From the NCBI GenBank assembly GCA_019038625.1, contig JAHOYU010000077.1:3703-67702 (forward strand): 64,000 nt of DNA, read 5' to 3'. The notes under the pieces are model-generated. The model had not been told where the DNA came from and ran no database searches. It worked only from the letters and a program-made list of their open reading frames with translations. Source of the DNA: Candidatus Latescibacterota bacterium. GTDB lineage: Bacteria > Krumholzibacteriota > Krumholzibacteriia > Krumholzibacteriales > Krumholzibacteriaceae. Position 1 is the stretch's first letter. The number at the start of each line of letters is the position of its first letter. Position numbers and translations under genes: made by a program. This document shows, one piece after another, positions 2,057 through 55,036 of this stretch.

Positions 2057-2103
2057 ATAAGCAGACACCCTGGCGTGAGCGAAAGATGCAGACAGCGTTC
2101 CGA

Positions 2104-2176
2104 ATTGCTATAGCTCAATTGGTAGAGCTTCTGACTATGGATCAGACTGTTACCGGTTCAAATCCGGTTAGCGAAT
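2104..2176 (+). tRNA. tRNA gene, 73 nt, no encoded CCA; anticodon loop CUAUGGA, identity uncertain
   Basis: Cloverleaf read by hand: acceptor ATTGCTA/TAGCGAA with six of seven pairs and an A1-A72 mismatch; D-arm GCTC-AATTGGTA-GAGC; anticodon stem TCTGA/TCAGA; 5-nt variable loop; T-arm ACCGG-TTCAAAT-CCGGT. Confidence 0.5.
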
Positions 2177-2195
2177 ATTGAGAGACTTGTAATCT

Positions 2196-25000: not shown

Positions 25001-28000
25001 TTAGTTCGGCTTCACTGAACGCAAATCGCACACCTATGGCCTTCAGGGTGCGCCGTATGAAGGCCATCAGCCTGTCCAACAGACTCGGTGCTACCGTTCC
25101 ATCCTCTATCTGTCCGGCAAGCATTTCCTCGGCAGCTTTTTCAAGGGGAATGTTCCACCTGTCGGCTATGCCCTGGATTTCATCTTTGTACTTCTTATGC
25201 TCGATCAACTCCTTGCGGTAGAACTCATCGATACCACTACCGAGTACCCGGCGTAGCCCGTAGTGCGCTACAACCTCATGCAATACAGTGCTAACCGCTT
25301 TCTTGCGTTGCCGCAGGCTATCGGCTATCAGATACATTTCTTCGGTAGTCGGATCGAAGAAGCCACGGATTACGCCGCCCTTTTCCATCTCAGCCTTCAC
25401 CGCATCCTGGTACTGCGCTGGCAGGTCTTCAACGGACTGCACGGTATTCACCGGCACGTCAATCTTGGCGGCCAGTGGCTTAACCGCATCCTCGATGAAC
25501 TTGACGGACTTAGGTTTTGCGGCAGGCTTGCCTTCCCGTGTTGCAAAGCGGAGCTTGCCTTCTGGCGGTTTCTCGGTGGGTTTTACTTCCTCAGCAGCGG
25601 GCTTTTTCTTTAGACGCGCCTCTCTGCTATCAATCAAATATTTAGCATCGGAGAAGGCTCGTGCGTGCATCTTAGCACCATCCTTTTCCAATCTAAAGGC
25701 ATACTTTTCCCCAAGCGGAGACATAGGATTAATTTTAACAACTCTATACCCGTGTTTTTTTGCATACTCTCGAACTTCTTTAATTTCTGACCTGCGCACA
25801 GCATAGCCATCAAATGTCTTGACGGCCTCATAATCTTCACCGAGAGACTTGGCTTTGCGCTGTGCTGCTCCCTGAGACTTAAATGGACGACCAGTGCTGG
25901 TGAATATTAGTTCTGGTTCAATCTTTACTTCCTCGCGCTGCTCAGGCGCGTCCTCAACGGGCGGAGCGGATTTCTCAAGCTCGGTCAGCTTGCGCTTGTC
26001 CTTCTCAACCTGTCGGGCAACAGCGGCCAGCGCATCCTTGCTCATCTTTTTACCGATAACATTCTTACCAGACTCAAGAATCATCTCGCCTTCGCGGATG
26101 TCGTTCTTCTTTGCCTGGATTGCGGCTGCATCAAGAACTGGCTTCACTTCCTCTTTCATTCCCGCAGCTTCGGTTACAGGCGCGGCGGGTTCGGGTTTGG
26201 CTGGGGGTGTGCTGGCATCAACAATAACAGCCGGAAATGATTTTACCCCAAGCATTGCAAGGGCATCAAATCGATGACCACCCTCAAGGATATATGGCCC
26301 CTTGTCTTCTATGGCTACAATAAGTGGATTGATTTCTTTATTGCTCTTAATTTCATCCGCAAGTTTACGGATGCGTTCATTCTCAGTAGCACTATGGGAG
26401 GGTTTGTTTACGTCTTCTGCCACTGTGAAGGCATCCATAGAAACATCCCTAACGCCCGGTAATATTTCATATTCACCTTCGTCATAGGTTGATTCTATCG
26501 AACCCATGTTAGGTACGGCTTTGCGGACAGTGTAACCGTACAGCTTATCTTTGGTCGTTGGGGCCGCCCTAACGCTTTCAATGTTCGCCTCTACCGCCTC
26601 AGCCTTTTCCTCGCCCTTTTCTTCCGCAACGACTTCAGGCTCCGGTGCGACCTCAGCTTGTGCTTCTTCTTCTTTTTCTTCCGCTTTTTCCTCGAAAACT
26701 TCACGTGCATGCTCTCTCGCGTACACATCAACTGGCTTGTCGCTCTTATATAGTTCATCTACGGCCTCCACTGTACCAAGTTTGGAAACCTTATCCTCGA
26801 TAAACTTGCGTGTATCATCGGTTATCTCTGCCTCTGCCTCAACCGCCTTCGCCAGCTTCTTTTCAATCTCTGTTGCTGGTTCTTTTTCCTCAGCCTTGCG
26901 CTTTTCCTCAGCGGCGAGGGCTGAAACTTCCTCTTTCGCTGGCTCTTCTGGCTTCTCTGCGGCTTTTTCCTCTTCCGCCACCTCTTTGACCGGCTCTTCA
27001 GCGATCACCTCTTCAGCGGCCTCTGCGGGCTTTTCGGTGGTAACTTCTTCGCCAAACATTTTATTCAGATCAGATTCAAGTTCGTCGGCTGTTTCAGCGG
27101 GCTTTTTCGCAGTGGGCTCTTCTTTGGGCTTTTCGACCTCTTTTTTAACCTTAACTTCTTTCTCTGTAACGGGTTTAGTGGGGGGCTCTTCAGCCACCGC
27201 AAGTTCTTCATCCTCTATCAGTGCTTCAGCCTCCTCCGCGCTTACCTCGGCCTCTACCTCTGGCCCCAATTCTTTCGTGAACGGCTGTTTGGCCTTGTCG
27301 CCCTCGACTGTCTTTTCTGCCTCAAGTTTCTCTTTTACGGCAGCTTGCATATCATCTCTTATCTTGCGCTCACGAATTAGTTGCTCTTCCTGCTCAAGAC
27401 CCAAATCGCCTTTCCCCTGCTCTTCCTCCAAGGCTTTTACGCGGTTCTCCTGTGCTTTCTGGATATAACCCGATACGGCACTTCCACCACCACCCATAAT
27501 CATCGCAGGGCCAATAACAGCAAGCCCGTCCTTCATCTTCTGGCGATACTCGGCACCCTCCATGCCTAAGATTTCAGCCTCAAGCGGTTCTTCGGCGTAT
27601 TCTGTTGCCCCCTCGGTTAATGCCGCCACGGTAGCCATAACAAGCTTCTTGCCCTTATACTTGGAAAATATGGCAGTAAAGCCTATTTGGTTGAGAACCG
27701 CGCTACCCACGGTCATCAACATCATATCCTTGAACGCTTCATCCGGCTCATTCCCGCGCTCACGCGATTCACCATAGGTATTTGCCCCCTCCATCATGCC
27801 CGCAGAAATACCACCAATAGCAGTCGCGGCGAGTTTCCCGAATCTTAGCGCAGCCGCGCCAGGAAGCATCGCGGCGAGAAACGATGGAGCCATATTACCA
27901 ACTCCATACAAGGTAAATCGAGGGTCAAGGATGATCTCAGGGTTATCCCAAAGGTTCTTGCCCTGTAATTCTTTCGCCATTGGGTGTTCTTCGGCCTTCT

Positions 28001-28622
28001 CCTTTAAGAAGTCCCTTACGCGCCTTGCCCCTATTTCAAGGGCACCCTCTCCTTCAACCTGTTCTGCTACCGCGTGCGTTATGGCAAACGGAATACTCGC
28101 TACGTCGAGGACACCTGCGGTCAATCCCTCGGCCAGTGATTCCATATACCCTTGTGGGTCGGCTATAGATCGTTGATCTTCTGGCATCTGCTCAACCACA
28201 CCACCGGCTTCAGGCATTACCGGGAGTTCGGACACGGTATCATACGGCTCCGGCTCCAAGCCTACGATATCCGCAATACCAGACTCTTGCGCGGCGGCAG
28301 CCAATTCCTTGTCGGCCTCTAACGAGAACCGATCCGGTTCAGCCGCTACCGCTGTTTCTGGAAATAGTGGGCGCTGCCCTTCGACCATAGCCTGATGCGC
28401 CTCGGTAAGCTGGTCACCGGCCATAGGATTAGGGAGATACTTATTAAGGAAGTGATCTTTAATGCGTGTCTGGTCTTCTGCGGCAATAGAATTAAAACGG
28501 TTATCTGCAATATTATTATCGAAATACTTCATAACTATCGCAGACTGTTGTTCGTGGGGCAACCTGATAAACCGTTCATCCCGCTGCCACTTATTGATTA
28601 ATCTGCTCAGGCGATCAGGCAT
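22086..28622 (-). CDS. giant 2178-aa protein with an internal ParB/Srx-like nuclease domain; probably an ejected internal-virion or polyvalent protein
   Basis: Single uninterrupted ORF. N-terminal region with Gly/Ala-rich hydrophobic segments; 300 aa of E/K/A-rich low complexity; ParB-like motif NPLIVAIEDKGPYILEGGHRFDALAMLG at about 26200-26360; HEVVAHYG motif; about 1000-aa C-terminal globular region. It sits in the slot occupied by large ejection proteins in podovirus-like gene orders. Confidence 0.6.
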   Translation of the reverse strand: MPDRLSRLINKWQRDERFIRLPHEQQSAIVMKYFDNNIADNRFNSIAAEDQTRIKDHFLNKYLPNPMAGDQLTEAHQAMVEGQRPLFPETAVAAEPDRFSLEADKELAAAAQESGIADIVGLEPEPYDTVSELPVMPEAGGVVEQMPEDQRSIADPQGYMESLAEGLTAGVLDVASIPFAITHAVAEQVEGEGALEIGARRVRDFLKEKAEEHPMAKELQGKNLWDNPEIILDPRFTLYGVGNMAPSFLAAMLPGAAALRFGKLAATAIGGISAGMMEGANTYGESRERGNEPDEAFKDMMLMTVGSAVLNQIGFTAIFSKYKGKKLVMATVAALTEGATEYAEEPLEAEILGMEGAEYRQKMKDGLAVIGPAMIMGGGGSAVSGYIQKAQENRVKALEEEQGKGDLGLEQEEQLIRERKIRDDMQAAVKEKLEAEKTVEGDKAKQPFTKELGPEVEAEVSAEEAEALIEDEELAVAEEPPTKPVTEKEVKVKKEVEKPKEEPTAKKPAETADELESDLNKMFGEEVTTEKPAEAAEEVIAEEPVKEVAEEEKAAEKPEEPAKEEVSALAAEEKRKAEEKEPATEIEKKLAKAVEAEAEITDDTRKFIEDKVSKLGTVEAVDELYKSDKPVDVYAREHAREVFEEKAEEKEEEAQAEVAPEPEVVAEEKGEEKAEAVEANIESVRAAPTTKDKLYGYTVRKAVPNMGSIESTYDEGEYEILPGVRDVSMDAFTVAEDVNKPSHSATENERIRKLADEIKSNKEINPLIVAIEDKGPYILEGGHRFDALAMLGVKSFPAVIVDASTPPAKPEPAAPVTEAAGMKEEVKPVLDAAAIQAKKNDIREGEMILESGKNVIGKKMSKDALAAVARQVEKDKRKLTELEKSAPPVEDAPEQREEVKIEPELIFTSTGRPFKSQGAAQRKAKSLGEDYEAVKTFDGYAVRRSEIKEVREYAKKHGYRVVKINPMSPLGEKYAFRLEKDGAKMHARAFSDAKYLIDSREARLKKKPAAEEVKPTEKPPEGKLRFATREGKPAAKPKSVKFIEDAVKPLAAKIDVPVNTVQSVEDLPAQYQDAVKAEMEKGGVIRGFFDPTTEEMYLIADSLRQRKKAVSTVLHEVVAHYGLRRVLGSGIDEFYRKELIEHKKYKDEIQGIADRWNIPLEKAAEEMLAGQIEDGTVAPSLLDRLMAFIRRTLKAIGVRFAFSEAELRVLLDDALRASMGRKRAEREAGQPLFARTLDPVAIEKEIQQVSELLANLPPMRNGVSTENIQMRYLQKIAELERQMVAAEQGLRFARTDVSADLERTIPQIDDETNREKFVRVVVDKLNRIETIQKAYDVVPQTEDTRLAAELFPGRVSHELDKLEDFLTKGRKSFMVRLAQAGYSVGKLGGFMYAKHTAERRQAKYGEMIDDLNAQLEAGVITPEVAEKELAKLSARLEDRDDTFGAGISLNQAAVVLDRYEGTGIEEFADEFRKKIINVTLERYRDYGEITEEAYQKYKDQYNYYVPLKGKAGKKAYRGIGKGFSVSGKSIKRAHGRWSIADNPFVQAIVDYEQAVMREEKNKVASTFLEFVRNNPHPLWDAKEVFNPSTINEEGEIAFRDPASDYAHEIFAVKEEGKTIEVTIRDVVLARAMKSLGTESTVPIIGGALELFNTIQRGVITTFSPVFPIFNFIRDTPTATFHITSDHGFKLATKTLASLPAAINGVRGNIRSDADKGWAAEYEDLKATGGKVGWFDNKPLEQRIKQLERKVRSYTGKGRIVAPIKVLGQLIQDYNEMVESGIRLSVYHHLKGAGATKEVAASYAKNVTVNFNKKGEIGRILNSLYLFSNATIQGIARNLRTIGIPGKPKTAGQVRAQALIGLIIATAFLNELKNRMIDPDDWEEVADFQKDQNATWHLGGGRTLSVPLPYGLNVYWALGGLAAEMALGNNPDPVKLAARMVGAVADAASPVGGGPLTQIISPTALDLPVQLATNKTFFGGPVAPDQPAYGPKKPRHQLYFKGVRPSTREFTRWLAEKTATQRKPFGAADVSPEYIDHTINFLGGGIGKFVSNSVATGISLATDEKIETRFIPVMRRFYRKPYPGKSKQTVYGMLDDAATTVFTAGERERFKSAVDRAVADGSMEKKTAKSVKSRFIKEQRKINPELKAVPVRESPVFPKPPDPGKQLRKSLRDIGRIKK
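22087..22132. repeat. 46-bp direct repeat, copy 2 (3' end of the giant ORF, encoding ...PGKQLRKSLRDIGRIKK)
   Basis: Exact duplicate of 21938-21983. Confidence 0.7.
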
Positions 28623-31196: not shown

Positions 31197-33455
31197 TTAT
31201 GAATCAACGGCTATGGTGCCTACAAATCCATCGCCGAATTTTACTTTTAGATTGCCATCGGCGCTATTGCCGTATATTTGTATGACTCCACTTATTGTAT
31301 CCGGCTCGGTTACGCCATCGGTGACACAGATGATGTCTGTCCGAACCTTGCCCGCTTTATCCCACGAGAATTCGGTGCCAAGGGTCGTTACTTTGATTGT
31401 GCTTTCGGTCGGGGGTGTAGGCAAGGTGCCGCGCGTTCGCCTGATGCGTATCCAGTAGTAGTCCACTACATTGTCACCCGCGCCCGTAACTTCGTTGACC
31501 GTCCGCACTCCCCAGTCGGTCAGGTTGTCTTTATCAAAGGTGATAGCTCCAGAGTTCTGGAAGCCTGATGTGCTATCGTCTGGAGTGAAAGCGTGCCAAG
31601 TTCCAGCATCCTTGACATACTCAAATGTCGGGATAATGGTATGGCTTGCTGGCGTGACAAGGATCGCATTTATCTCGTCCCACTTCGCTGCCGCCGCTAT
31701 GTAGATATAGTCGTCGTCACTTGGGAAGAGCTGGACGTTTGTTCCAGAATCCCCGAAAGCAGTAGTCCGATCCGTGTAAGTATCCGTATCATAAGAAAAC
31801 GCGGCGGTTATGGAAGCCAGCGTCCCAAGATGCTGGTGAATAACATCAACATTGCCGTTAGAGCCAACGGCAGCTACGTTCATATCGGTGTTGGCCGTGT
31901 CTGTTACACTCACGCTAAGGCCATGAACATCACCTGCCGTGGCTCCCGCGTTATCTACCAGGACGCAGTTAGCGTGTCCTACCTTGGCAGCATCATCAAA
32001 GGCTGTAGCATCGAAGTTTACGCTATTCCCACATATTCCAGAGTAAATATCCGCGTCCACTTCCAGAAAAACGGCGCGATGATTGTCCTTCCCGGCGGTT
32101 ATGAGATAGTGAAGTGCGTGATCGTTATTGGCTTCATCACAATGCACCTTGAATGAAGCCCCGGCATTTACACCAATATGAAAATGCACATCCCCATTAT
32201 CAAGCACGAACATAAGAGGATGGTTAATTACCACGAAGTCCACGCCAGTCAGGTCATCTGGAGAAGCCGCTCCGGTCGAGTCTAAAGAGATAGTAATCGT
32301 AGTCTCTTCTACTGCGATAATCTCTCCGGTTGCCCCAATATAAGAAGCATCGCTTGCATCCGTTATTCTAAGCACATCTCCTACTACCACACCGTCAGTT
32401 ACAAATGTTTCTCCGGCTTTAAGAAACGTGAATGTAGCGGCAGTGAAAGTAGCGGCTATATCATACCATAAGGTTTTCGTCTTGGCATACTCCCGCATCA
32501 GGAGAGAGGGTCCATACTTATTGGCAATCGCGTACATCCCGTTACCCCAGTAACAACCGCCATCATTTGAGAATAGATCACCCTCGCTCCCAAAGAATCC
32601 AGTGGAATCGGCATCGTCCCCCAATTGCACGTTCTCGTGGAATGTCACTTTCTTAGCAGCATCCACGGTCATCACGACCACCCACGCCCCTGTAGCATAC
32701 GACTCAAGAGTGAACCCGGCAGCCGTCTTGCTGGCCACCAAGCGCCACTTGTCGGCGTTATCGTCACCTTCGTCGGCACTCAGGTAGATAATCCCGTCCG
32801 TATCCTCGGCACCCTTGACCGTCAGATCATCGCTCGTTACAAGCGTACCGCCCACGGTAGCATTGCCCGCAATTGTCGCCGTGGCACCGCCTACGTCTCC
32901 TACTACATCAAGATCACCACCAACGTCAGCATTGCCGGTAATATTGGCGGTTGCGCTCTCCATTTCCCCTGTTACATCAAGAGACGCGCCAGTTATGGCC
33001 CCAGCTATCGTCGCCGTAGCTCCAGCAACGTCGCCGGTCACATCAAGGTCTCCTCCTACATCCGCATCGCCAGTGACATTCAGGGTCGCGCTCTCCACCT
33101 CGCCAGTAACATCAAGCGAATCACCGGTTATCGCGGCACCTGAAATATCACCGTCAATACTCGCATCACCATCGGCTTCAATATTACGGCCCGCCAGAAC
33201 GTCCCGTTCCGCGATCACATCCTTGCCAGACTTGATGTCGCCCAGATCAGAGGTAGTAATATCATTCTTAACCTCAAGGCTATTGAGCGACAGATCACTA
33301 TCAATACCGGTTGCGGTTTCAACCGCTTCAGTGGTATCAGATAACTCTCTTACTATGGCCCCAAACCACTCCTGCCACGCCACGGACATAATGGTCTTTT
33401 CTTCATCCTCGAAGAAGGGCGTTTCAATCGGTGGCTCTATGAACTGGTTGGCCAT
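31197..33455 (-). CDS. large tail or structural protein (752 aa) with tandem 45-aa repeats
   Basis: Repeats AITG(D/A)SLDVTGE.ESAT.N.TG.ADVGGDLDV.GDV.GATATIAG occur twice, then a beta-rich body. Confidence 0.55.
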   Translation of the reverse strand: MANQFIEPPIETPFFEDEEKTIMSVAWQEWFGAIVRELSDTTEAVETATGIDSDLSLNSLEVKNDITTSDLGDIKSGKDVIAERDVLAGRNIEADGDASIDGDISGAAITGDSLDVTGEVESATLNVTGDADVGGDLDVTGDVAGATATIAGAITGASLDVTGEMESATANITGNADVGGDLDVVGDVGGATATIAGNATVGGTLVTSDDLTVKGAEDTDGIIYLSADEGDDNADKWRLVASKTAAGFTLESYATGAWVVVMTVDAAKKVTFHENVQLGDDADSTGFFGSEGDLFSNDGGCYWGNGMYAIANKYGPSLLMREYAKTKTLWYDIAATFTAATFTFLKAGETFVTDGVVVGDVLRITDASDASYIGATGEIIAVEETTITISLDSTGAASPDDLTGVDFVVINHPLMFVLDNGDVHFHIGVNAGASFKVHCDEANNDHALHYLITAGKDNHRAVFLEVDADIYSGICGNSVNFDATAFDDAAKVGHANCVLVDNAGATAGDVHGLSVSVTDTANTDMNVAAVGSNGNVDVIHQHLGTLASITAAFSYDTDTYTDRTTAFGDSGTNVQLFPSDDDYIYIAAAAKWDEINAILVTPASHTIIPTFEYVKDAGTWHAFTPDDSTSGFQNSGAITFDKDNLTDWGVRTVNEVTGAGDNVVDYYWIRIRRTRGTLPTPPTESTIKVTTLGTEFSWDKAGKVRTDIICVTDGVTEPDTISGVIQIYGNSADGNLKVKFGDGFVGTIAVDS
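32865..33134 (-). repeat. tandem 135-bp coding repeat (two units) inside the 752-aa gene
   Basis: Two consecutive 45-aa units are near-identical at protein and DNA level. Confidence 0.55.
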
Positions 33456-35296
33456 CAGTGATACCCGCCTTCATAGCCAATAAATCCGGCCACCATTACA
33501 GTTTTGATTGGGTCGGATATAGTAAACCTTAACCCGATTGTTCGCGCACTGCCAAGTTGGAACCAACGTGCCCTTGCCTCATATTCGCCAAGAGCGCCAA
33601 TATCGGTTATCCGTGGAGGGTTCCAGCTTTTACCACCGTTATATGATAGCTCCACCATTGCCTCTGGAGAACTACCCTGGCCACTTACCGCACCAGTACC
33701 AGGCTCCATCTCAAGTTCTACCTCTTTGACGATTATCCTGTACCTGTCATTAATCACATTAGGCACTGTCCTTTGCCTGATGACAGTATTGCCATCCTCG
33801 GTATAAACATCCGGGTCAAGGTAGTAAATCTTGTTATTCCGGTAATCGCCTACGAGATGATAATTCTCGAACAGGGCATAAGTGTTTCCGCGATGCCTGC
33901 CGTACCCGTCTATGTTGTCCTTCCAGCTTTTACGCTCATGCCATTCCTCTTCGGTGAAATCATAGCTGAATGTAACATCGTCTGTCGGGAAGCTTATCAC
34001 GTAGAATTCGTGGCCGCCTTGGCCGTAGGAGAACGACACTGCATCATCCACCTTACTCAACGCTTCCATTCTCGCAACCGTCTGGGGCGTAGATATATCA
34101 ACTGCGCTCATCCCTATGGCGGAATAGACATGCTTGTTATGGCCAAGCCACGTAAGTCTTTCTTGAAGGGCAGACACAGACCACTTCGCACCAAGTCCTA
34201 TTTCGAGATTACCGCCAGAACGGCGCTTGAACACAAGTTCAGCATCTCCGCTATTATAAAATACTTCCGTGCTTTTCTTCTTCCACACCCACAGGTTGCG
34301 CTTGTGGCTCAATATGCGTAGCGTATCAGTCGGCTTGACCTCTGCCCTGGCCACATCGAGAGCATTCCAGATGAGGCCGTTGTTTACCGCACTATGGAAA
34401 AAGTCGGGGCTATTCGGCCTGCCGGATATAAAAAAACCGTCCTGCGCGGTGCCACTCAGGCCACCCAAGAAGCTATAGTCGCTTTCATCAAGGCGCGTAA
34501 ACGAACCGCTTGAATCATCATACACGTATCCCGCGATAGTCCCGTCACAGATGAATAACTGCCTCCCCCCCACTAAGTTCCAGATGGAAGACATATCAAC
34601 AAGCCCGGCCTTCGTGGCCATAGGAGTATTGGCATTAATGGTGGTCACCGTGAAGTCGCTGTCTATTCTCTTCAGCAACGGCCCATGCACAACATACAGG
34701 TAATCGCCCATTATGTGCATACCGCGCATACTATAGTTTAGATTGATAACCTGGGTAAGGCTCACATCGCCCATTACGAGGGCTAAACTTGCAGTTGCAG
34801 TAAACTTAACACCACCAGAAGCACCGGCCACTATGTCCATCGTATACGTACCGGGACTCACCACAGGATCGCCATCCGTACCCGCAACAGATGGGACAAG
34901 AACCCCGCCGCTGATAGTAACTACGGTGAATGTCAGACGATGAGTTTCATCTTCTTCTGGCGCGGTCGCACCAACCATTTGGGCAACAGTTTGTTCGGTA
35001 TTATCCGCACTACCGCCTGCCGCCCTTCTGAGCTTATCACTTGAGATAGTCCATTGACCAGAACCTTTTGTCCAATCGGAATCGGCAGAAAAATCACCAC
35101 TTGTAATCTGGTCAGACTGTAGGTCGGTTTCTGTAAGATCGAGTTTTTCCACAAGGCCGGGAGTATTAATAAGCGCATCACGACCCCGCCCACGATCACG
35201 CTCAAGAAACATATTGACCGTGCGCTGTGGGTCGGCGTATACGCTTATACCCTCGCGGCTTCCGCCAACGAGAGGGATTTCTTTTCTCTGCGTCAT
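33455..35296 (-). CDS. large tail or structural protein (613 aa)
   Basis: Shares the domain FTV.(T/S)ISGG.(L/T).PS.AGT.G..VS..G....DIVAGASGGV.F with the 494-aa protein at 37526-39010. Confidence 0.5.
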   Translation of the reverse strand: MTQRKEIPLVGGSREGISVYADPQRTVNMFLERDRGRGRDALINTPGLVEKLDLTETDLQSDQITSGDFSADSDWTKGSGQWTISSDKLRRAAGGSADNTEQTVAQMVGATAPEEDETHRLTFTVVTISGGVLVPSVAGTDGDPVVSPGTYTMDIVAGASGGVKFTATASLALVMGDVSLTQVINLNYSMRGMHIMGDYLYVVHGPLLKRIDSDFTVTTINANTPMATKAGLVDMSSIWNLVGGRQLFICDGTIAGYVYDDSSGSFTRLDESDYSFLGGLSGTAQDGFFISGRPNSPDFFHSAVNNGLIWNALDVARAEVKPTDTLRILSHKRNLWVWKKKSTEVFYNSGDAELVFKRRSGGNLEIGLGAKWSVSALQERLTWLGHNKHVYSAIGMSAVDISTPQTVARMEALSKVDDAVSFSYGQGGHEFYVISFPTDDVTFSYDFTEEEWHERKSWKDNIDGYGRHRGNTYALFENYHLVGDYRNNKIYYLDPDVYTEDGNTVIRQRTVPNVINDRYRIIVKEVELEMEPGTGAVSGQGSSPEAMVELSYNGGKSWNPPRITDIGALGEYEARARWFQLGSARTIGLRFTISDPIKTVMVAGFIGYEGGYH

Positions 35297-47106: not shown

Positions 47107-47406
47107 TCAATATAGAGGCTTGTCCGTAGCCGGTGTCCGCGTTGCGCCCGCCTTTTTCTTCTTTGCCACTCGTTCAGGCTTTACTGCCAGCGCCTGTTCC
47201 ACGGCCCTGCAGTAGCCATTCGAGTCCGCTACTTTCCCATGGGTCAGATCGGGCCTGTCCATGTCAATGACCTTATTCTGACTCAATCTCCTGCGCTCAT
47301 CTTCCAGCGCGGCACTAAGCGCTCTCCTGAAATGTTGGGTAACAGGATGATTGAACCATTGCTGAAATACATCATCATTTACCGGTAGATTTCTTATTCT
47401 TGCCAT
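47107..47406 (-). CDS. hypothetical protein (99 aa)
   Basis: The ORF overlaps the portal gene's stop by 32 nt. Confidence 0.35.
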   Translation of the reverse strand: MARIRNLPVNDDVFQQWFNHPVTQHFRRALSAALEDERRRLSQNKVIDMDRPDLTHGKVADSNGYCRAVEQALAVKPERVAKKKKAGATRTPATDKPLY

Positions 47407-49423
47407 CTGCCTTCCCCTTCTTGGTCGGCTGCTTATCAGCCGGTTTGTCAGGTTTGTTGGCCTGTTTTATCCTCGCGGCGGCTTCCATCTTCTTGATATC
47501 TATTTCCTTCAGCGCTATCTCATGCTTCTGATCAAGCTCCTGTTTCTTAAGCTTCAACTCGCCTTCTTTAAGCTTCAACTCTTCCATCTTAAGCTTGAAC
47601 TCAGCGCCAGCGGCTTCCTTTTCCGCGAGTATCTCCAGCACTTTCGGGTCTGGCGGCGGCTTGTAATCCTCTGGTATCTTGAATCTTTCCTTGTCCTCTA
47701 TCTGCATCGCATCAAGCCAATACTCGAAAATAGCTTGGGCTACCGGCGGGACTACCGTTTGCCTCATCTCCATAAGCTTGTCGGCCTTGAGCATCTTCTG
47801 GATGTGCATCACATCTTCGGGCAGCGCGGAAAGCGTTATATCAACACTCTCTGAGTTAAAGTCTCTGGCAAAGACTTCCTGCTGCTCGTTTACATCCATT
47901 ACGTTGTAATATTCCGCCCGGCCAAGATGCTCCATGTCCAGACGGTAAATCTTTTTGAGTTCCTCGCCAATGCCACGGTGGACACGGCCCATAACCGCAG
48001 TATGCAGCTTAAGCCCCTGTTCTATCAGGGCAAGCGTAGTAGTGGCCGGTTGATTTGAGCCGGAGGCTTGACCGCCCAACACATCTACGCTCATACCCAG
48101 ACGCTGATAGGCTTCCATCAGCAGCCCAAGTGTATGGAACAGGGTCATGCTCGGCTCACGCGCGGGCAGCATCATAAACTTCTTGCGCAGATCGTCTACA
48201 TCCGATGCTTCCTTGAACTCGTTCGGCTCAAACTCAAGGTTGCCGGACTCGTTGGATGCCATCAGCAGATCAGAGGTATACAGGCCAGCGTTGGTATTAT
48301 ACCAGATGCCGGAATCAATTATCTCTCTGATTATCGCGTTAATGGCATCATTGGGGTGGGAAAGCAACTGGCCGAATCCGAAGCCGTAAACCGACTTATC
48401 GATTGCGGGCATAAACAGGATGCGGGTAAACATCTCACGCGCTTCTATCTTTGCGATCTCTTTCCCGTCGGGTGTCAGCCAGATATCGTCTTCCTTGTAT
48501 CTGGCCTTTATCCTCGCAACAGTATCTGTTTCCTTGTGAACGGTCACTATGTAAGGCTCTGCATAGCCATCACCGTCCAAGTCCCACCATCTATGCTGCT
48601 CCAGAAAGATATAATTACCTTCATCTTCTCCCTGTGAGGTCTGCTTCGCCTCCTGATCACCCTCGCCTATCTTCTCCAAGATATCTGACCATGCACCGCT
48701 ATTAATGCGCTCCTTAACAGTATTCCGGGTCAACTCAAGGTAATGGGTAGCGCGTTTGGCGGTCTTCAGGTCGGTAACTTCGGGGTGGATCACTAAGTCC
48801 ATCGCAGATACATACTCACTGTAATTGCGCTTCTCTTCCACGTAGCGGTATGTTTTCTTGAAGGCGCAGCCGAATACTGGCAGGCCGAACAGGGCAGCGT
48901 CAGTCTCAGGCATCCATTCAGGCATTTCCTCTGTAAGCTGGTAGTTCACAAAGTCGGCAACGCGCTGTGCGCTACTGGCCTTCTGGCCGTCCGGGTCTTG
49001 GCCGATTACCTTGCCCTTTACTATTCTATTGCTGAATATCGCTCCTGTCGCCCTGGAACTGAACTGGACACACGATTGGGCCAGCAAAGGCATTATAACA
49101 GAACATGCTCCTGCGAATGGCGTGTCCTTTTCCTCCACATTCATCTTAACGAACTTGATGGCCATCGCCATAGTCCGTTCCCAATCTTTGCGCGCGTCCT
49201 TATCGTACTTATACTCCTGAGTGACCTTCACGCCAATCCGGCGTACAACCTCGTCTTTCAGCGCGGGTACGATATTCGCCATCTTGCTCCACTTCACAAG
49301 CTGCTTCGGGTCAGTGCCCTTGGCGTTGTTGCCCGTAGCGTCCTTCAGACCCCGTGAAGCATAGTACTTTCTGTTCTTCGTCACGTATTTCGGCATTTCA
49401 CCGCCCCTTTTTCTTCCATTCAA
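47375..49423 (-). CDS. portal protein (682 aa)
   Basis: Size, position (after the terminase and before the scaffold and capsid genes), and a K/E-rich helical tail. Overall pattern typical of podovirus-type portal or connector proteins. Confidence 0.6.
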   Translation of the reverse strand: MNGRKRGGEMPKYVTKNRKYYASRGLKDATGNNAKGTDPKQLVKWSKMANIVPALKDEVVRRIGVKVTQEYKYDKDARKDWERTMAMAIKFVKMNVEEKDTPFAGACSVIMPLLAQSCVQFSSRATGAIFSNRIVKGKVIGQDPDGQKASSAQRVADFVNYQLTEEMPEWMPETDAALFGLPVFGCAFKKTYRYVEEKRNYSEYVSAMDLVIHPEVTDLKTAKRATHYLELTRNTVKERINSGAWSDILEKIGEGDQEAKQTSQGEDEGNYIFLEQHRWWDLDGDGYAEPYIVTVHKETDTVARIKARYKEDDIWLTPDGKEIAKIEAREMFTRILFMPAIDKSVYGFGFGQLLSHPNDAINAIIREIIDSGIWYNTNAGLYTSDLLMASNESGNLEFEPNEFKEASDVDDLRKKFMMLPAREPSMTLFHTLGLLMEAYQRLGMSVDVLGGQASGSNQPATTTLALIEQGLKLHTAVMGRVHRGIGEELKKIYRLDMEHLGRAEYYNVMDVNEQQEVFARDFNSESVDITLSALPEDVMHIQKMLKADKLMEMRQTVVPPVAQAIFEYWLDAMQIEDKERFKIPEDYKPPPDPKVLEILAEKEAAGAEFKLKMEELKLKEGELKLKKQELDQKHEIALKEIDIKKMEAAARIKQANKPDKPADKQPTKKGKADGKNKKSTGK

Positions 49424-50933: not shown

Positions 50934-51164
50934 TTAGCCTTTTCCCACACAATCCTCTTTCTCTGCATTCTTGATTATCTCCATCGTGCAGGCCAAGCAG
51001 AATTTCCTGACAAGTTCATTTGATAACCGCGCCGGTTGCCCGCAATCGCATACGCCTATGATTGGAAAGGAAGTCTGGTATTCAATGCTCATCTTGTTAC
51101 CCTCTTTATCAATGCCCATGACCACTATTCGGTTCTGATGACAACTCTCTTTGTTCTCCGCCAT
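50934..51164 (-). CDS. small Cys-rich (zinc-ribbon-like) protein
   Basis: ...CDCGQPARLSNELVRKFCLAC... Confidence 0.35.
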   Translation of the reverse strand: MAENKESCHQNRIVVMGIDKEGNKMSIEYQTSFPIIGVCDCGQPARLSNELVRKFCLACTMEIIKNAEKEDCVGKG

Positions 51165-51493
51165 AGGTAGGTAGCCAAGTCACGCCAATATGGGCACGCC
51201 CCCTCTGGAATGCACTCATCGGCTGGCTTAAATCCATAGGGCTTCCATGCTCCGCGCCGATCTTTGTAGCACTTAAACCAGCGCCACGCTACGCTGGTTC
51301 TAAAAATATGATTCCACCACCCTACACGATACCATAACCAGAATAGCGGAACAACAGGAGCTATTGCATATCTTAAGTCGGGCCAATTGCCCAGAGTCGC
51401 CCATCCTACGTTTACCCACGGGAATCTCATCGGCCCTAAATCGTCAACATACTCACGGCTCACCGTTATCGTGCTCTGAAATGCTGGAAACAT
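51125..51493 (-). CDS. Trp-rich hypothetical protein (122 aa)
   Basis: ORF immediately downstream of the terminase gene. Confidence 0.4.
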   Translation of the reverse strand: MFPAFQSTITVSREYVDDLGPMRFPWVNVGWATLGNWPDLRYAIAPVVPLFWLWYRVGWWNHIFRTSVAWRWFKCYKDRRGAWKPYGFKPADECIPEGACPYWRDLATYLWRRTKRVVIRTE

Positions 51494-51673
51494 CAGAACC
51501 CCCTTAGTGTTCCGGATGAACGTAACCGCAGATCAAACCCTTTACCTGAATGTATTTCCATCTCCACGGATGTTCTCGCTGCCATTTCGCAAAACGCATT
51601 TCAGCAAGTCCAATCTCAAAGGCTTGCTTGTCGCACATCTCCCGAAAGCTACCCATATAGTTATTGCTCATAA

Positions 51674-54229
51674 TCAGTACCCACTTATAGGGCTTTTGCC
51701 CTTGTCGCGTTGACGGTGGAGTGCCGCATGTCGCCTGTGTTGCAGGCTATCCTTGTAAGTTTTGTTCTCGCGCCTCTGGTATTCAACCGGCTTTATCCTG
51801 AAAGCAAAGGTCTGGGCCAGCGCATCTCCAAAGTCCGGGCTGTCAAGTTCACGCGCCTTCATATGCTCCTTGCGCTCCAACTGTATCTTATCCGCAACGC
51901 TAAAGCCATACTCGATAGATGTCAGGTCTGTTTCAAGGTAATCGTACTCGCGCTGCTCCAGGCCACTCAGGTCTGCGGTCTTCAGCCATTCGCGCATGTT
52001 TCCCCACATCTCGGCCCGCTTATTGAAGTATTTCTTCTTGCTTGACCGGCTACCCGCCACAACGGAGAACCAGCGGCACTTAAGCTGCCTGCCACGATCA
52101 ATGACACCTGTCCCCGGCCCTGTCTCATCGATAAACACGGCATCGGCACCGTATTCGTCTTCAGCGTCCTGCACCAAGCTAACAATTGTCATGTTATCAA
52201 GCTCTCGATACTCGCGTATCTCCAGTATTCTAAGTCCCTGCCTTATAACAATAACAGTCCTGTCGTCACCGAAACGGGCTACATCAACGCCTATCACAAT
52301 AGGCGAATCCTTGTAGAGATCGTAATCAAGCTTCCGCTTACGGGCCTCTTCCACCCAATCAAGGGCAATAAACTGCATTGAACTTGCGCGCGGAAACTCA
52401 CCCTTCACCCTGACCCTCACAAAATCGCTGTCTTCTCCGTAATCGTCTATCCACTCCTGGATAAGCTGTTTCTCGGCCTTTTTCGCCGTCCTGCTGTCCA
52501 CCTTGAAAGTCACCCAACGCTTGCGGAACTTCGTCCAGCAGGCTCTAAAGCGGCCCACGTTTCTTGTCGGGTTGCCGAAACATATCCAGATAGAGCCGGT
52601 TGTGGTCATGGCACCGCTGGCCACCTCCCATATCTTGTCATCGATAGCACTCGCCTCATCGAAGATCATCAGCACGTTTTCTTCGTGTGTACCGGCAAAC
52701 GCCTCTGTATTCTGCTTGCTCCAGGGTGCGGCGGTCATAAAGTGCGTGGTAGGGTGTTCGATTGCGCGGAACTTGGTGGCAGTCCATTCAAACCAATGCT
52801 GGTTGATAACCATCTGGTGCCACTTCGATAGCTCCATCCATGTCTTGTCGGTCAACTGCATCTTGGTATTGGCGGTCACAACGGCCTTGATCGGTGTCCG
52901 CGTGGACATGAACCAGAGGATAATCCAGGCTACAAGGGCCGTGTTGTGTGTGACGATGAAATCATTTGCCAGATATAATTGATCCTCAGCCTCAACAGTT
53001 ATACACATGCATTCTGCTTCACCGGCAAGCTCCACGCGATCAATAAACCTTTCCAGATATCGCTTCTGTGATGTCGGCCTTATTCTCTCTGCCTTGCGCT
53101 TAATGTAGCACGGAGTAAATCCGTCTGGAAACGTCAAGGAACACAAGTAGGCTCCGTTATGCGTCTTACTATGCAGTCTTGCCTTCCCGCCGATGGAACG
53201 AGTTAGCCATATCACGTCTTCGATGAGCAACTTAGATACAGAGCAATATTGAGCACATCCAGTATCAGAAACATATCCATCGGTGTCCATCAGGCCACGT
53301 AGCACCTCTTCGCGCACCTCACGGAGATTATACTTATAAATATCGGGCACATGTTTTTCTCGCGCACCACACTTGTCAACGCCGAGTCGCTCCAACGCTG
53401 GTCGCAAATGTCCCACATTAAATACCTTTGCCTTCGTCTCTCGCTTGCTTTGCCCCTCGGTGAGCCTATAGCGCGCCGAAGCGATGCGCTCAAACACCTC
53501 AGCGTCCATATTTGTAATACGGCTTGTATTTCGGCAACCATCCCCCAGCCATGCGCCCAGTGTATACGGATCAACATTGACCCACTGATATGGATATTCT
53601 ACCGCACCATGACGCGGTATTTGGAATCTTCGTGCGCGCCCCTGCCCGTTTTTCCGCCGCGGCCCAGTTTCGGCGATCTCAGCAGTGCTCTTTGTTTCCC
53701 AATCTTTTCTGCGCTCTTTCACAAGCCATAAGTGCTCGGCGCACGTTAAGGTGCTGCTTTCATCGTCAAATATCACTCGATATATTGGCTTGATGCCCTG
53801 TGGGTGAATTTGTGCAATTCTTGTAGGCTTTCCGTCCCTACCAAAGACGGTATCTCCGGGCTTCAAATCTCCCCAGCGCCGTACACCGGTTGGCGTGTCC
53901 AGCTTCATATCAGTTGGATGCGCTTTTCCTGCCCCGTGGCCGCTGCTGACGGCCATCTGGATAGCGCGTGTTATGTTCCCATCTTTGCGCTTGAGCAGTT
54001 CTTCACGCAGCAGTCCAAGAAACTTGGTCTGCCAGATATCCGGCCCTGTCTCTTTTTCGAGAATAGTGCCCGATCTGCCCCAGGGAAGCGCCCACATGAC
54101 AAAGCCGTAAGGGTCATCCTTGAAGCTCATTATCTTCAAGGTCAACTCTTTCTCGTTCAACTCCGCCTTTGCCGCGCCATCGTGGTGCGATCTGCCTGTA
54201 GATTGGGCATGTGCTGTGGCCTCACTCAT
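51674..54229 (-). CDS. terL: terminase large subunit interrupted by a 327-aa intein
   Basis: Walker A is split: ...VSSGHGAGK | intein | TALVAWIILWF..., which reconstitutes GHGAGKT. Downstream terminase ATPase and nuclease pattern (...TTTGSIWICFGNPTRNVGRFRACW...). The extein is about 524 aa. Confidence 0.8.
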   Translation of the reverse strand: MSEATAHAQSTGRSHHDGAAKAELNEKELTLKIMSFKDDPYGFVMWALPWGRSGTILEKETGPDIWQTKFLGLLREELLKRKDGNITRAIQMAVSSGHGAGKAHPTDMKLDTPTGVRRWGDLKPGDTVFGRDGKPTRIAQIHPQGIKPIYRVIFDDESSTLTCAEHLWLVKERRKDWETKSTAEIAETGPRRKNGQGRARRFQIPRHGAVEYPYQWVNVDPYTLGAWLGDGCRNTSRITNMDAEVFERIASARYRLTEGQSKRETKAKVFNVGHLRPALERLGVDKCGAREKHVPDIYKYNLREVREEVLRGLMDTDGYVSDTGCAQYCSVSKLLIEDVIWLTRSIGGKARLHSKTHNGAYLCSLTFPDGFTPCYIKRKAERIRPTSQKRYLERFIDRVELAGEAECMCITVEAEDQLYLANDFIVTHNTALVAWIILWFMSTRTPIKAVVTANTKMQLTDKTWMELSKWHQMVINQHWFEWTATKFRAIEHPTTHFMTAAPWSKQNTEAFAGTHEENVLMIFDEASAIDDKIWEVASGAMTTTGSIWICFGNPTRNVGRFRACWTKFRKRWVTFKVDSRTAKKAEKQLIQEWIDDYGEDSDFVRVRVKGEFPRASSMQFIALDWVEEARKRKLDYDLYKDSPIVIGVDVARFGDDRTVIVIRQGLRILEIREYRELDNMTIVSLVQDAEDEYGADAVFIDETGPGTGVIDRGRQLKCRWFSVVAGSRSSKKKYFNKRAEMWGNMREWLKTADLSGLEQREYDYLETDLTSIEYGFSVADKIQLERKEHMKARELDSPDFGDALAQTFAFRIKPVEYQRRENKTYKDSLQHRRHAALHRQRDKGKSPISGY
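52943..53923 (-). mobile_element. intein with a LAGLIDADG homing-endonuclease domain, inserted after the Walker A lysine of the terminase
   Basis: Begins AHPTDMKLDTPTG... (Ala at position 1). Block B-like TCAEHLW. Two LAGLIDADG motifs, LGAWLGDGC and LRGLMDTDGYV. Ends ...FIVTHN, followed by the +1 Thr of the extein. Confidence 0.7.
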
Positions 54230-54278: not shown

Positions 54279-54623
54279 TCACACCTTCGCAGTCTGGGTT
54301 AGTTGCTCCATCAGCGCAAAGAACGTATCGGCTGCTTCCGTACCACTCTTAACCAACTGCTGTTGCCGGGGTGGAACGCCCCACATACCGCTGAACTTGC
54401 AGATGAACAGCACCCCCTGGCGCTGGCAGGAGAACGTACCCCGTGAGGCCATAATCTCCATGCTCTTGAATATTTCGCTCTCGCCCTTACTCATCGGCTT
54501 CTCCATTTCATAAACTACTCCCGTAGTGATTTGATGAATCCGCAAAGCGCAAAGATGGACTACAGCAATGAGTTGATATTGGGATGCTTTCCAGGGCTTA
54601 AAAATTCCTCTATTGCATAGCAC
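54279..54623 (-). CDS. hypothetical protein (the start is probably the internal MEKPMSKGESEIFK)
   Basis: Shares the KGSEIFK N-terminal motif with 54560-55036. Confidence 0.4.
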   Translation of the reverse strand: MLCNRGIFKPWKASQYQLIAVVHLCALRIHQITTGVVYEMEKPMSKGESEIFKSMEIMASRGTFSCQRQGVLFICKFSGMWGVPPRQQQLVKSGTEAADTFFALMEQLTQTAKV

Positions 54624-55036
54624 ACCATTAATTCGCTTCGCTTGCGCGTGTTGAGCATGTCGGAAAATATTGCATCACCATCCCCGCCAATTCGTATAGC
54701 CTCTCTCGTAGCCATCCACCTCTTAGCCAAAATTTCAAGGGCCAGCGCATAAACCATATCGACATAGGACTTACTAACGCCCTTGTCTATTGGGATCAAC
54801 AGCATCTCCGACACTGGAAGGGGAATATTTAGACCATTAGTAAACCGAATTCGCTCATTTTTACCAACAACATCTCCCTTTAAGCAGTCGCCACGAGTGA
54901 TTTCCACGAAACTATCTTTAGTCCAGTTGTCATCCTTGATGTCCTCTGGCTTGAATATCTCTGACCCTTTATCAGACATTTTTCTTCCTCTCTGCAAGCA
55001 TCGCATCGGCAAGTCTGTAACTCGCTTCTGCGGCAT
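54560..55036 (-). CDS. hypothetical protein (158 aa)
   Basis: MSDKGSEIFKPEDIK... is paralogous at the N-terminus to the downstream gene. Confidence 0.45.
   Translation of the reverse strand: MPQKRVTDLPMRCLQRGRKMSDKGSEIFKPEDIKDDNWTKDSFVEITRGDCLKGDVVGKNERIRFTNGLNIPLPVSEMLLIPIDKGVSKSYVDMVYALALEILAKRWMATREAIRIGGDGDAIFSDMLNTRKRSELMVCYAIEEFLSPGKHPNINSLL

Follow-up and report, generated by a model that had tools for sequence, protein, structure and literature searches.

A terminase large subunit gene in the window, the 64,000-nucleotide stretch of DNA analysed here, encodes a protein whose Walker A motif is divided by 327 residues that begin with alanine. This locus raises the question of what the insert is, by which route it could leave the protein, and whether it may still spread between terminase genes.

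The terminase gene and its surroundings

The gene occupies positions 51674..54229 of the minus strand as a single reading frame, open through all 851 codons to the stop. Its assignment as a terminase large subunit in the initial annotation is borne out by matches of the precursor to the PHROG terminase large subunit families phrog_2, phrog_19299 and phrog_36964, by annotated phage terminases found with it by tblastn, and by a Pfam match that emerges on splicing. The N-extein (aa 1-102; 53924..54229, minus strand) aligns to intein-less terminases through ...SGHGIGK and ends in the Walker A residues GHGAGK. The C-extein (aa 430-851; 51674..52942, minus strand) opens with the Walker A Thr and comprises the remaining ATPase domain and a putative RNase H-like nuclease domain; it is matched by phrog_2 (aa 430-819, E=2.4e-35) and aligns to 80 IMG/VR terminases with 40-53% identity. 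Removal of the insert in silico gives a terminase of 524 aa, reading GHGAGKTALVAW, in which GHGAGKT is restored. On this spliced sequence the Pfam profile Terminase_6N, absent from the unspliced precursor, scores 23.9 bits (cut-off 22) over aa 97-288, that is, across the junction, while Terminase_6C reaches 13.2 bits, below its cut-off of 22.6. A comparison of the spliced extein with PDB sequences gave nothing significant, the best match being the Sf6 gene 2 terminase at an E value of about 0.5.

The gene sits within a cluster of packaging and head genes on the same strand, including those for portal (47375-49423; phrog_1216) and head closure (33455-35296; phrog_578). It adjoins the portal gene and is the only terminase seen among an apparently full set of phage structural genes. 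The nearest annotated terminase relatives belong to Uetakevirus and Purivirus podophages of Gram-negative bacteria (40-44% identity). A megablast search of phage and E. coli genome collections with the terminase gene returned no matches, which means that those collections contain no close relative of the source phage, and the exact precursor protein was found in one Logan assembly only (SRR14477300).

Boundaries of the insert

At the DNA level the two junctions (marked by a slash) read ...GGA AAA / GCG CAT CCA... and ...ACA CAC AAC / ACG GCC..., and in the protein GHGAGK/AHPTDMK...FIVTHN/TALVAW, so that the insert (52943..53923, minus strand; Ala1 to Asn327) splits Walker A between Lys and Thr, as initially annotated. 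Precursor residue Ala103 is residue 1 of the insert, and no Ser, Thr or Cys nucleophile is found at this position. The terminase is uninterrupted at the junction in all 81 intein-less homologues compared (80 IMG/VR relatives and Pseudomonas phage UFJF_PfDIW6), where SGHGxGK is followed directly by Ser, Thr or Gly, then Ala, and then L..W; the insertion boundaries are therefore exact. With 327 residues inserted between its Walker A Lys and Thr, a P-loop ATPase could not bind nucleotide.

The presence of two serines 6-7 residues upstream of the junction (AVSSGHGAGK) might suggest other boundaries, either those of a class 1 intein starting at Ser95 or Ser96 or those of a domain insertion kept in the mature terminase. 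The uninterrupted reading of the 81 homologues leaves such boundaries a practically negligible probability, and block A is placed directly behind Gly-Lys in the alignment of the intein family (55 sequences, the query and 54 relatives). As the intein-less homologues all retain SGHGxGK, a start further upstream would delete the P-loop. An upstream Ser or Cys as the true start, raised with the initial annotation as the finding that would overturn it, is thus incompatible with the intein-less alleles, and the upstream Ser start was rejected.

Used alone as a query against a database of 5.8 billion proteins, the insert recovered 85 relatives with E values down to 2e-88. Because of these relatives, the sequence matches to class 3 inteins and to PI-SceI, and a confident two-domain predicted fold, chance is excluded; judged from sequence and model, the terminase P-loop is interrupted by a genuine intein. 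Its distribution is sporadic.

The splicing domain

The conserved blocks of the splicing domain were located by alignment. Block B (intein aa 55-68; 53720..53761, minus strand) carries Cys61 (B:7), His64 (B:10) and Trp66 (B:12), and aligns to ...AAHQW of the MchDnaB1 and MsmDnaB1 inteins. It includes the motif TCAEHLW (intein aa 60-66), in which the positions of His64 and Trp66 are invariant (55/55 aligned sequences) and match the HQW of the class 3 structures. Block F (intein aa 304-319; 52967..53014, minus strand), reading ECMCITVEAEDQLYLA, aligns to VRCVEVD of class 3 DnaB-1 inteins and contains Cys307 (F:4; codon 53003-53005), the predicted initiating nucleophile, which is Cys in each of the 55 aligned sequences. 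Block G (52940..52963, minus strand), DFIVTHN/T, supplies Thr325 (G:5), His326, Asn327 and the +1 Thr; in the family alignment the T-H-N residues are kept in 55/55, 55/55 and 54/55 sequences respectively, and at +1, 40 of the 55 have Thr, 12 have Ser and two have Cys. Alanine is the first residue in 40 of the 55. Block B position 7, usually Thr or Ser, is occupied by Cys here.

None of the Pfam profiles for inteins or HINT splicing domains matched this protein at E<=0.1; the splicing domain was recognised instead from sequence matches in the PDB, from the alignment of the family and from the predicted fold. Among proteins of solved structure, the class 3 DnaB-1 inteins MchDnaB1 (6rix, 6riy) and MsmDnaB1 (6bs8) match best in sequence, with HxW and the block F Cys aligned; these are class 3 inteins with a Cys-His-Thr triad plus Trp (PMC7664689). 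The AlphaFold2 model of the intein (pLDDT 93.2, pTM 0.92) has a HINT plus LAGLIDADG two-domain architecture, for which Foldseek returned PI-SceI as the best match to the whole intein (TM 0.68-0.70), and the class 3 DnaB inteins 6rix, 6riy and 6bs8 together with the PI-SceI HINT domain as matches to the HINT part.

The initial annotation took the N-terminal Ala to imply a non-canonical mechanism, "class 2 or class 3-like", and this choice can now be narrowed to class 3. Class 3 is defined by a Trp(B:12)-Cys(F:4)-Thr(G:5) (WCT) triplet that class 2 (KlbA-type) inteins do not have, its F:4 Cys is absolutely required, and P-loop and terminase hosts have been noted for it (PMC2807308); further class 3 biochemistry is given in PMC5222942. 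Since the triplet is present here as W66, C307 and T325, the element is very probably a bifunctional class 3 intein in the terminase P-loop, with splicing predicted from sequence and model. A class 2 route, in which Thr+1 itself would be the nucleophile at the N-terminal junction and Cys307 no more than a helper, shares the Ala start of KlbA inteins and is conceivable for WCT inteins, as only mutation of F:4 separates the classes (PMC5222942). It is nonetheless very improbable: the triplet that class 2 lacks is invariant in this family, every WCT intein tested so far needs its F:4 Cys (PMC2807308, PMC5222942), and the closest solved structures belong to class 3 inteins.

The homing endonuclease domain

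Pfam matches, alignment to PI-SceI and Foldseek all place a LAGLIDADG homing endonuclease domain at about intein aa 100-290 (53054..53626, minus strand). The Pfam scores are marginal: LAGLIDADG_3 reaches 23.4 bits with the intein alone (cut-off 22.5) and 20.1, under the cut-off, in the full precursor, and Hom_end 21.7 bits (cut-off 21.1) and again a value under the cut-off, 19.7, respectively. In NCBIfam the endonuclease region matches models for intein-containing Tes and RNR only weakly, with scores well short of the cut-off. The first LAGLIDADG motif (block C; 53534..53566, minus strand), YTLGAWLGDGC, aligns to YLLGLWIGDGL of PI-SceI (Asp218) and carries Asp128, a position held by Asp in 54/55 aligned sequences (LGAWLGDGC is intein aa 122-130). 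The second (block E; 53270..53302, minus strand), LRGLMDTDGYV at intein aa 208-218, aligns to LAGLIDSDGYV (Asp326) and carries Asp215, which is Asp in 52/55. In block D, Lys190 of KHVP (53354..53356, minus strand) aligns to Lys301 in the KNIP of PI-SceI, and the position is Lys in 51/55. Asp128, Lys190 and Asp215 are thus the counterparts of Asp218, Lys301 and Asp326, the active-site residues of PI-SceI. Foldseek matched the LAGLIDADG part to I-DmoI (TM on target 0.50-0.58; pseudo-dimeric alpha-beta fold), and among endonuclease domains also to PI-SceI, PI-PfuI and the Tli and Pho VMA inteins. On sequence and modelled structure the endonuclease is apparently intact. The initial annotation had described the insert as 327 aa whose removal leaves 524 aa, and all the motifs it quoted, TCAEHLW, LGAWLGDGC, LRGLMDTDGYV and the terminal HN followed by Thr, are present.

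An element in decay was also considered, either an intein fixed and immobile with a dead endonuclease, or one that no longer splices, in which case the phage would be defective and its terminase gene a pseudogene. Endonucleases that are inactive or eroding are common among inteins, and mini-inteins and degraded endonucleases have been catalogued; the marginal Pfam scores, the occurrence of the exact protein in one public assembly only, and the want of a matching empty target site among the 81 intein-less alleles (see below) point the same way. Against this, the frame is open over 851 codons, all splicing residues and the three PI-SceI-equivalent endonuclease residues are kept, the AlphaFold2 model is confident throughout the endonuclease domain, and a relative (L085) is 70% identical through that domain. 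Moreover, a P-loop insert that fails to splice should be lethal, as the gene is the only terminase seen beside the portal in an apparently full structural set. We consider decay unlikely.

Proposed splicing and homing

Taking the element as a bifunctional class 3 intein, a route by analogy with this class can be proposed. The 851-aa precursor would be translated with a broken ATPase site. Cys307, with help from block B (His64 and Trp66) and block G (Thr325), would attack the Lys102-Ala103 peptide bond to give a thioester-branched intermediate. Asn327 would cyclise to set the intein of 327 aa free, and an O-to-N acyl shift would then restore a normal peptide bond, yielding the 524-aa terminase with intact GHGAGKT. 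The LAGLIDADG domain is in turn predicted to cut intein-less terminase alleles across the insertion point, whereupon repair would copy the intein in.

The intein could, instead of being purely selfish, serve as a conditional redox switch on DNA packaging: under oxidation Cys307 would be locked into a disulfide, for which Cys61 (B:7) and Cys305 (F:2) are the candidate partners, and the terminase would stay an inactive precursor until reducing conditions return. A redox trap between Cys48 and Cys118 has been shown in the class 3 intein MsmDnaB1 (PMC6195587); the residue aligned to Cys48 in the present intein is Ile. Cys is found at B:7 in 23/55 and at F:2 in 18/55 aligned sequences, frequencies from which the trait, if true, would be widespread. 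This idea, drawn by analogy, is quite improbable.

Mobility and relatives

In L085, the closest relative, identity is 70.5% for the intein (241 aa) but no more than 49.9% for the C-extein (375 aa), a contrast that comes from one partial contig of SRR17165179. The higher similarity of the intein than of its host gene hints at lateral spread of the intein and agrees with the proposal that phages disseminate class 3 inteins. The reconstructed intein-less homing site reads AGCGGCCACGGGGCAGGAAAA up to the junction and ACGGCCCTTGTAGCCTGGATT beyond it. When the 81 intein-less alleles were compared with this 42-nt site, no near-identical empty site and no natural target was found (best 31/42 nt, median 26/42), which leaves current homing a prediction. 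The GC3 of the intein is 0.495 and that of both exteins 0.64. As the other genes of the phage span 0.50-0.62, this value is not diagnostic, and compositional foreignness of the intein was discarded as an argument.

When the six-frame ORFs of the window (80 aa or longer) were searched with an HMM derived from the 55-sequence alignment, this gene was the only match, so no second intein was found there. A scan of bacterial genome contigs with the intein recovered one distant relative, a 990-aa P-loop protein of Shewanella profunda with 30% identity, which adds nothing on the origin of the intein.

Implications

The locus adds one more class 3 intein, of full length and with an endonuclease that appears intact, a contribution of modest weight that leaves current understanding unchanged. 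Its host lineage is related to podophages of Gram-negative bacteria, whereas most catalogued class 3 inteins of terminases come from actinobacteriophages. Gene callers and Pfam missed the terminase identity of the unspliced precursor, Terminase_6N being recognised only after in silico splicing. Such genes are easily mis-sized or mis-annotated, as allelic Salmonella phage genes carry no intein annotation. A compact class 3 intein of 327 aa with Thr+1 and a P-loop context may also be a possible reagent for protein engineering.

Comparison with known systems

The nearest precedents in solved structure, MchDnaB1 and MsmDnaB1 (PMC7664689, PMC6195587), match the present intein at an E value of about 2e-6, with about 30% identity in blocks A and B. 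They share with it His-x-Trp, the block F Cys, T-H-N and insertion in a P-loop, but are mini-inteins without an endonuclease and reside in bacterial chromosomal DnaB. PI-SceI, the yeast VMA1 intein, has the same combination of HINT and LAGLIDADG domains, and its residues 218, 301 and 326 are conserved here; it differs in being a class 1 intein (Cys1, Cys+1), in its larger size due to an extra DNA-recognition region and in its eukaryotic origin. The class 3 prototype, MP-Be DnaB of mycobacteriophage Bethlehem (PMC2807308), likewise lacks an N-terminal nucleophile and has the WCT triplet, Thr+1 and a terminal His-Asn. It is of similar size (341 aa, here 327), carries a LAGLIDADG endonuclease domain and is of phage origin, while it begins with Pro1 instead of Ala1, has a DnaB helicase host and has Ser, not Cys, at B:7.

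An allelic intein in the same terminase family is found in the Salmonella phages 66FD, 65FD and PAT1 (Uetakevirus; MT580117, MT580116, MT261384). It lies at the same junction (GHGIGK/A...VTHN/S) and has the same class 3 residues, with 36.5% identity in the intein and 41% in the C-extein; the records label the gene "terminase large subunit" without an intein feature.

Class 3 inteins in phage terminase P-loops are already on record (PMC2807308, Tori et al. 2010; PMC5050341, Kelley et al. 2016), and hundreds of such inteins have been catalogued. Kelley et al. 2016 (PMC5050341) call the terminase Lys/Thr site the "classic" P-loop insertion. According to that paper and to Gosselin et al. 2025 (bioRxiv 10.1101/2025.01.02.630785), the actinobacteriophage intein TerL1-a has the same type of host protein and the same Walker A insertion point and, like the present intein, a canonical in-frame LAGLIDADG endonuclease and a phage context. 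The WCT signature is common to the present intein and the class 3 terminase inteins of those papers, the passages considered here leaving the class of TerL1-a itself unstated. Compared with these actinobacteriophage inteins, to which the present one is likened through their published descriptions, the host terminase is of a different lineage. The combination of Ala1 and an intact endonuclease in a terminase P-loop, which the initial annotation had singled out as deserving a look, is the typical, precedented form of class 3, and the intein described here is an ordinary example of an already described kind.

A terminase gene interrupted in its P-loop

The gene at 51674-54229 (-) is a single unbroken open reading frame of 851 codons, which in direct translation (slashes marking the junctions) reads ...AVSSGHGAGK/AHPTDMKLDTPTG... 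at the N-terminal and ...LYLANDFIVTHN/TALVAWIILW... at the C-terminal junction. The insert between these points (52943-53923) encodes 327 aa, and the exteins without it encode 524 aa reading GHGAGKTALVAW. All motifs quoted in the initial annotation are present where described, and a terminase carrying a P-loop insert at Walker A is borne out by the reading frame, the junctions and the 524-aa remainder. The same annotation named an intein start at an upstream Ser or Cys, with another junction, as what would refute it, and this was checked against homologues that have no intein. Both exteins align to the terminase of Pseudomonas phage UFJF_PfDIW6, which reads GHGIGK/SALVSWLIKW with nothing between, and when IMG/VR was scanned with the C-extein as seed, 80 loci of 40-53% identity came back, all intein-less, in which SGHGxGK is directly followed by S, T or G and then A...W; where both exteins matched, 0 extra bases separate the two matches. 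An upstream Ser start was rejected since it would delete the P-loop kept by these homologues, and the junction as originally placed holds.

The precursor itself has no terminase match in Pfam, while the protein spliced in silico matches Terminase_6N (23.9 bits, curated cut-off 22) over residues 97-288, spanning the ligation point. PHROG terminase families also match the gene, and downstream of it, on the same strand, come a portal gene (47375-49423) and a head-closure gene. Together with the intein-free homologues, these sequence matches and neighbours identify the host gene as the phage's terminase large subunit. As the terminase profile match appears only after in-silico splicing, automatic annotation of 51674-54229 would probably give a hypothetical protein or a LAGLIDADG endonuclease. 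No small terminase subunit was recognised: of the frames just upstream of the terminase (54279-55036, -), which include one of 114 aa at 54279-54623, the scan covered the 158-aa product of 54560-55036, which has no PHROG match. Three small frames of 55, 122 and 76 aa (within 50934-51671, -) lie just downstream, toward the portal gene, and the structural-gene block also holds a very long frame of 2178 aa (22086-28622, -). The only tRNA gene in the window (2103-2177, +) is typed by ARAGORN as tRNA-His with anticodon ATG, and Rfam also recognises a tRNA there (58 bits, gathering score 29). Its first acceptor-stem pair is non-standard, and a wobble A is out of the ordinary for tRNA-His in bacteria or phages, where the anticodon is normally GTG.

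Class of the intein

With the insert alone as query, 85 relatives were found among 5.8 billion proteins (best E=2e-88, 48% identity), 54 of which span both junctions and were aligned with the query. Among these 55 sequences, His64 and Trp66 of block B, Cys307 of block F and the pair Thr325-His326 never vary and Asn327 is kept in 54, while residue 1 is Ala in 40 and the +1 residue is Thr (40), Ser (12) or Cys (2). The same residues were invariant in a further alignment, of 47 sequences. The best solved structures by sequence are MchDnaB1 (6rix, 6riy) and MsmDnaB1 (6bs8), in which block B ...HQW aligns to ...EHLW and block F ...RCVEVD... to ...MCITVE... of the terminase intein; both are class 3 inteins of known structure that have a Cys-His-Thr triad and a Trp (PMC7664689; PMC6195587). 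Class 3 is defined by the lack of a nucleophile at residue 1, a Trp(B:12)-Cys(F:4)-Thr(G:5) triplet and a +1 Thr or Ser (PMC2807308; PMC5222942), and all three are found here. Of the two classes first suggested, class 2 or class 3-like, the former (KlbA-type) is ruled out by its definition, absence of the triplet (PMC2807308), which this intein has, and class 3 splicing is very probable. The Pfam intein and HINT splicing profiles gave no match to the class 3 splicing domain at E<=0.1.

Endonuclease, and predicted splicing and homing

The proposed two-motif endonuclease is likewise supported. The intein scores just over the cut-offs of the Pfam profiles LAGLIDADG_3 and Hom_end, and in a pairwise alignment Asp128, Lys190 and Asp215 (conserved in 54, 51 and 52, respectively, of the 55 sequences) fall on residues 218, 301 and 326 of PI-SceI, the active-site residues of that enzyme. 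An AlphaFold2 model built from the family alignment has a mean pLDDT of 93.2, a pTM of 0.92 and no segment below 50, and its top Foldseek match in the PDB is PI-SceI (E ~1e-18, TM 0.68-0.70), followed by the endonuclease-containing inteins Tli VMA, Pho VMA and PI-PfuI and, further down, by class 3 DnaB mini-inteins (HINT part) and I-DmoI (LAGLIDADG part). Profiles, active-site positions and predicted fold thus point to a full bifunctional architecture without sign of decay, and the endonuclease is somewhat more likely active than not.

Before splicing, the terminase would be unable to bind ATP, because 327 residues part the Walker A Lys from its Thr, and a split P-loop loses ATP binding. The same argument has been made for P-loop inteins (PMC6195587). 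By analogy with dissected class 3 inteins (PMC2807308; PMC5222942), Cys307 would attack the Lys102-Ala103 bond to form a thioester branch, the N-extein would shift to Thr+1, cyclisation of Asn327 would release the intein and an acyl shift would restore GHGAGKT. The endonuclease may in turn cleave alleles that lack the intein, at the conserved sequence encoding the P-loop, and so spread the intein.

Extra cysteines are also present: Cys61 (53741-53743) occupies block B position 7, where Thr or Ser is usual, and Cys305 (F:2; 53009-53011) forms a Cys-x-Cys pair with Cys307. Of the 55 sequences, 23 carry Cys at B:7, 34 at B:6 and 18 at F:2. Judged from sequence, such a residue could be a redox partner of the catalytic cysteine. 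Redox-conditional splicing has been shown for MsmDnaB1 (PMC6195587); that Cys61 and Cys305, near the catalytic site, would by analogy make splicing and hence packaging redox-conditional is most improbable.

Distribution and possible mobility

Within this terminase lineage the intein occurs sporadically. It is absent from the 80 IMG/VR relatives, but Salmonella phages 66FD, 65FD and PAT1 have an allelic counterpart (36.5% identical) in the same position, and a few metagenomic terminase fragments (P0001-P0003, P0005, P0013, P0020, P0047, P0074) carry it too. In these cultured Uetakevirus phages (66FD: MT580117; L001:2974-5424) the class 3 intein lies in an 816-aa gene reading GHGIGK/ALRPD...IVTHN/SAF; the three phage records annotate just 'terminase large subunit', without an intein feature. 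The closest relative is on a partial Logan contig (SRR17165179; L085:1-2007), which begins inside the intein, so that its protein (P0084) was called from an internal Met; its penultimate residue is Lys instead of His (VTKN/T). Its intein, endonuclease included, is 70.5% identical over 241 aa, and its C-extein 49.9% over 375 aa, a contrast, from one contig, of the kind expected if the intein had recently moved laterally between terminase alleles that had already diverged. No near-identical empty homing site was found. The GC3 of the intein (0.495, against 0.64 for the exteins on either side) suggests a separate history, but it is also in the range of other genes of this phage (0.50-0.62).

Relatives of the same family also occupy the P-loop (GK/A...HN/T or S) of helicases and other ATPases, while about a quarter (P0007, P0009, P0010, P0016-P0019, P0022, P0024-P0026, P0028, P0030) are hosted by PhoH-family ATPases at an Arg/Thr junction (...MRGR/AQP...VTHN/TLND...) and not at the P-loop Lys, which puts this one intein lineage in two or more kinds of site. 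A 30% identical class 3 intein of Shewanella profunda DSM 15900 (NZ_JAKILG010000004; L084:2446-5418; TGSGK/AQPLDS...VVTHN/TRMF) lies in the P-loop of a 990-aa chromosomal protein, perhaps a conjugative coupling (TraD/IcmO-like) ATPase. Bvi IcmO is a known class 3 intein (PMC2807308; PMC5222942).

Comparison with known inteins

The paper defining class 3 (PMC2807308) already placed such inteins in helicase-like proteins, phage terminase large subunits among them, and mostly in the ATPase P-loop; its prototype, MP-Be DnaB (341 aa), has an endonuclease domain, as the terminase intein does. Kelley et al. 2016 (PMC5050341) call terminase Lys/Thr a 'classic' P-loop insertion and describe terminase inteins of class 3 that contain LAGLIDADG domains, and Gosselin et al. 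2025 (10.1101/2025.01.02.630785) count 287 class 3 and 293 terminase inteins in actinobacteriophages, almost all of them with canonical LAGLIDADG domains. An intein that starts with Ala and keeps its homing endonuclease intact, initially singled out as noteworthy, is therefore the standard form of class 3 in the terminase P-loop. What is new is the sequence itself, to which no full-length relative found exceeds 48% identity (one partial relative reaches 70%), and the presence of the intein in a terminase lineage related to Uetakevirus/Purivirus-type phages of Gram-negative hosts.
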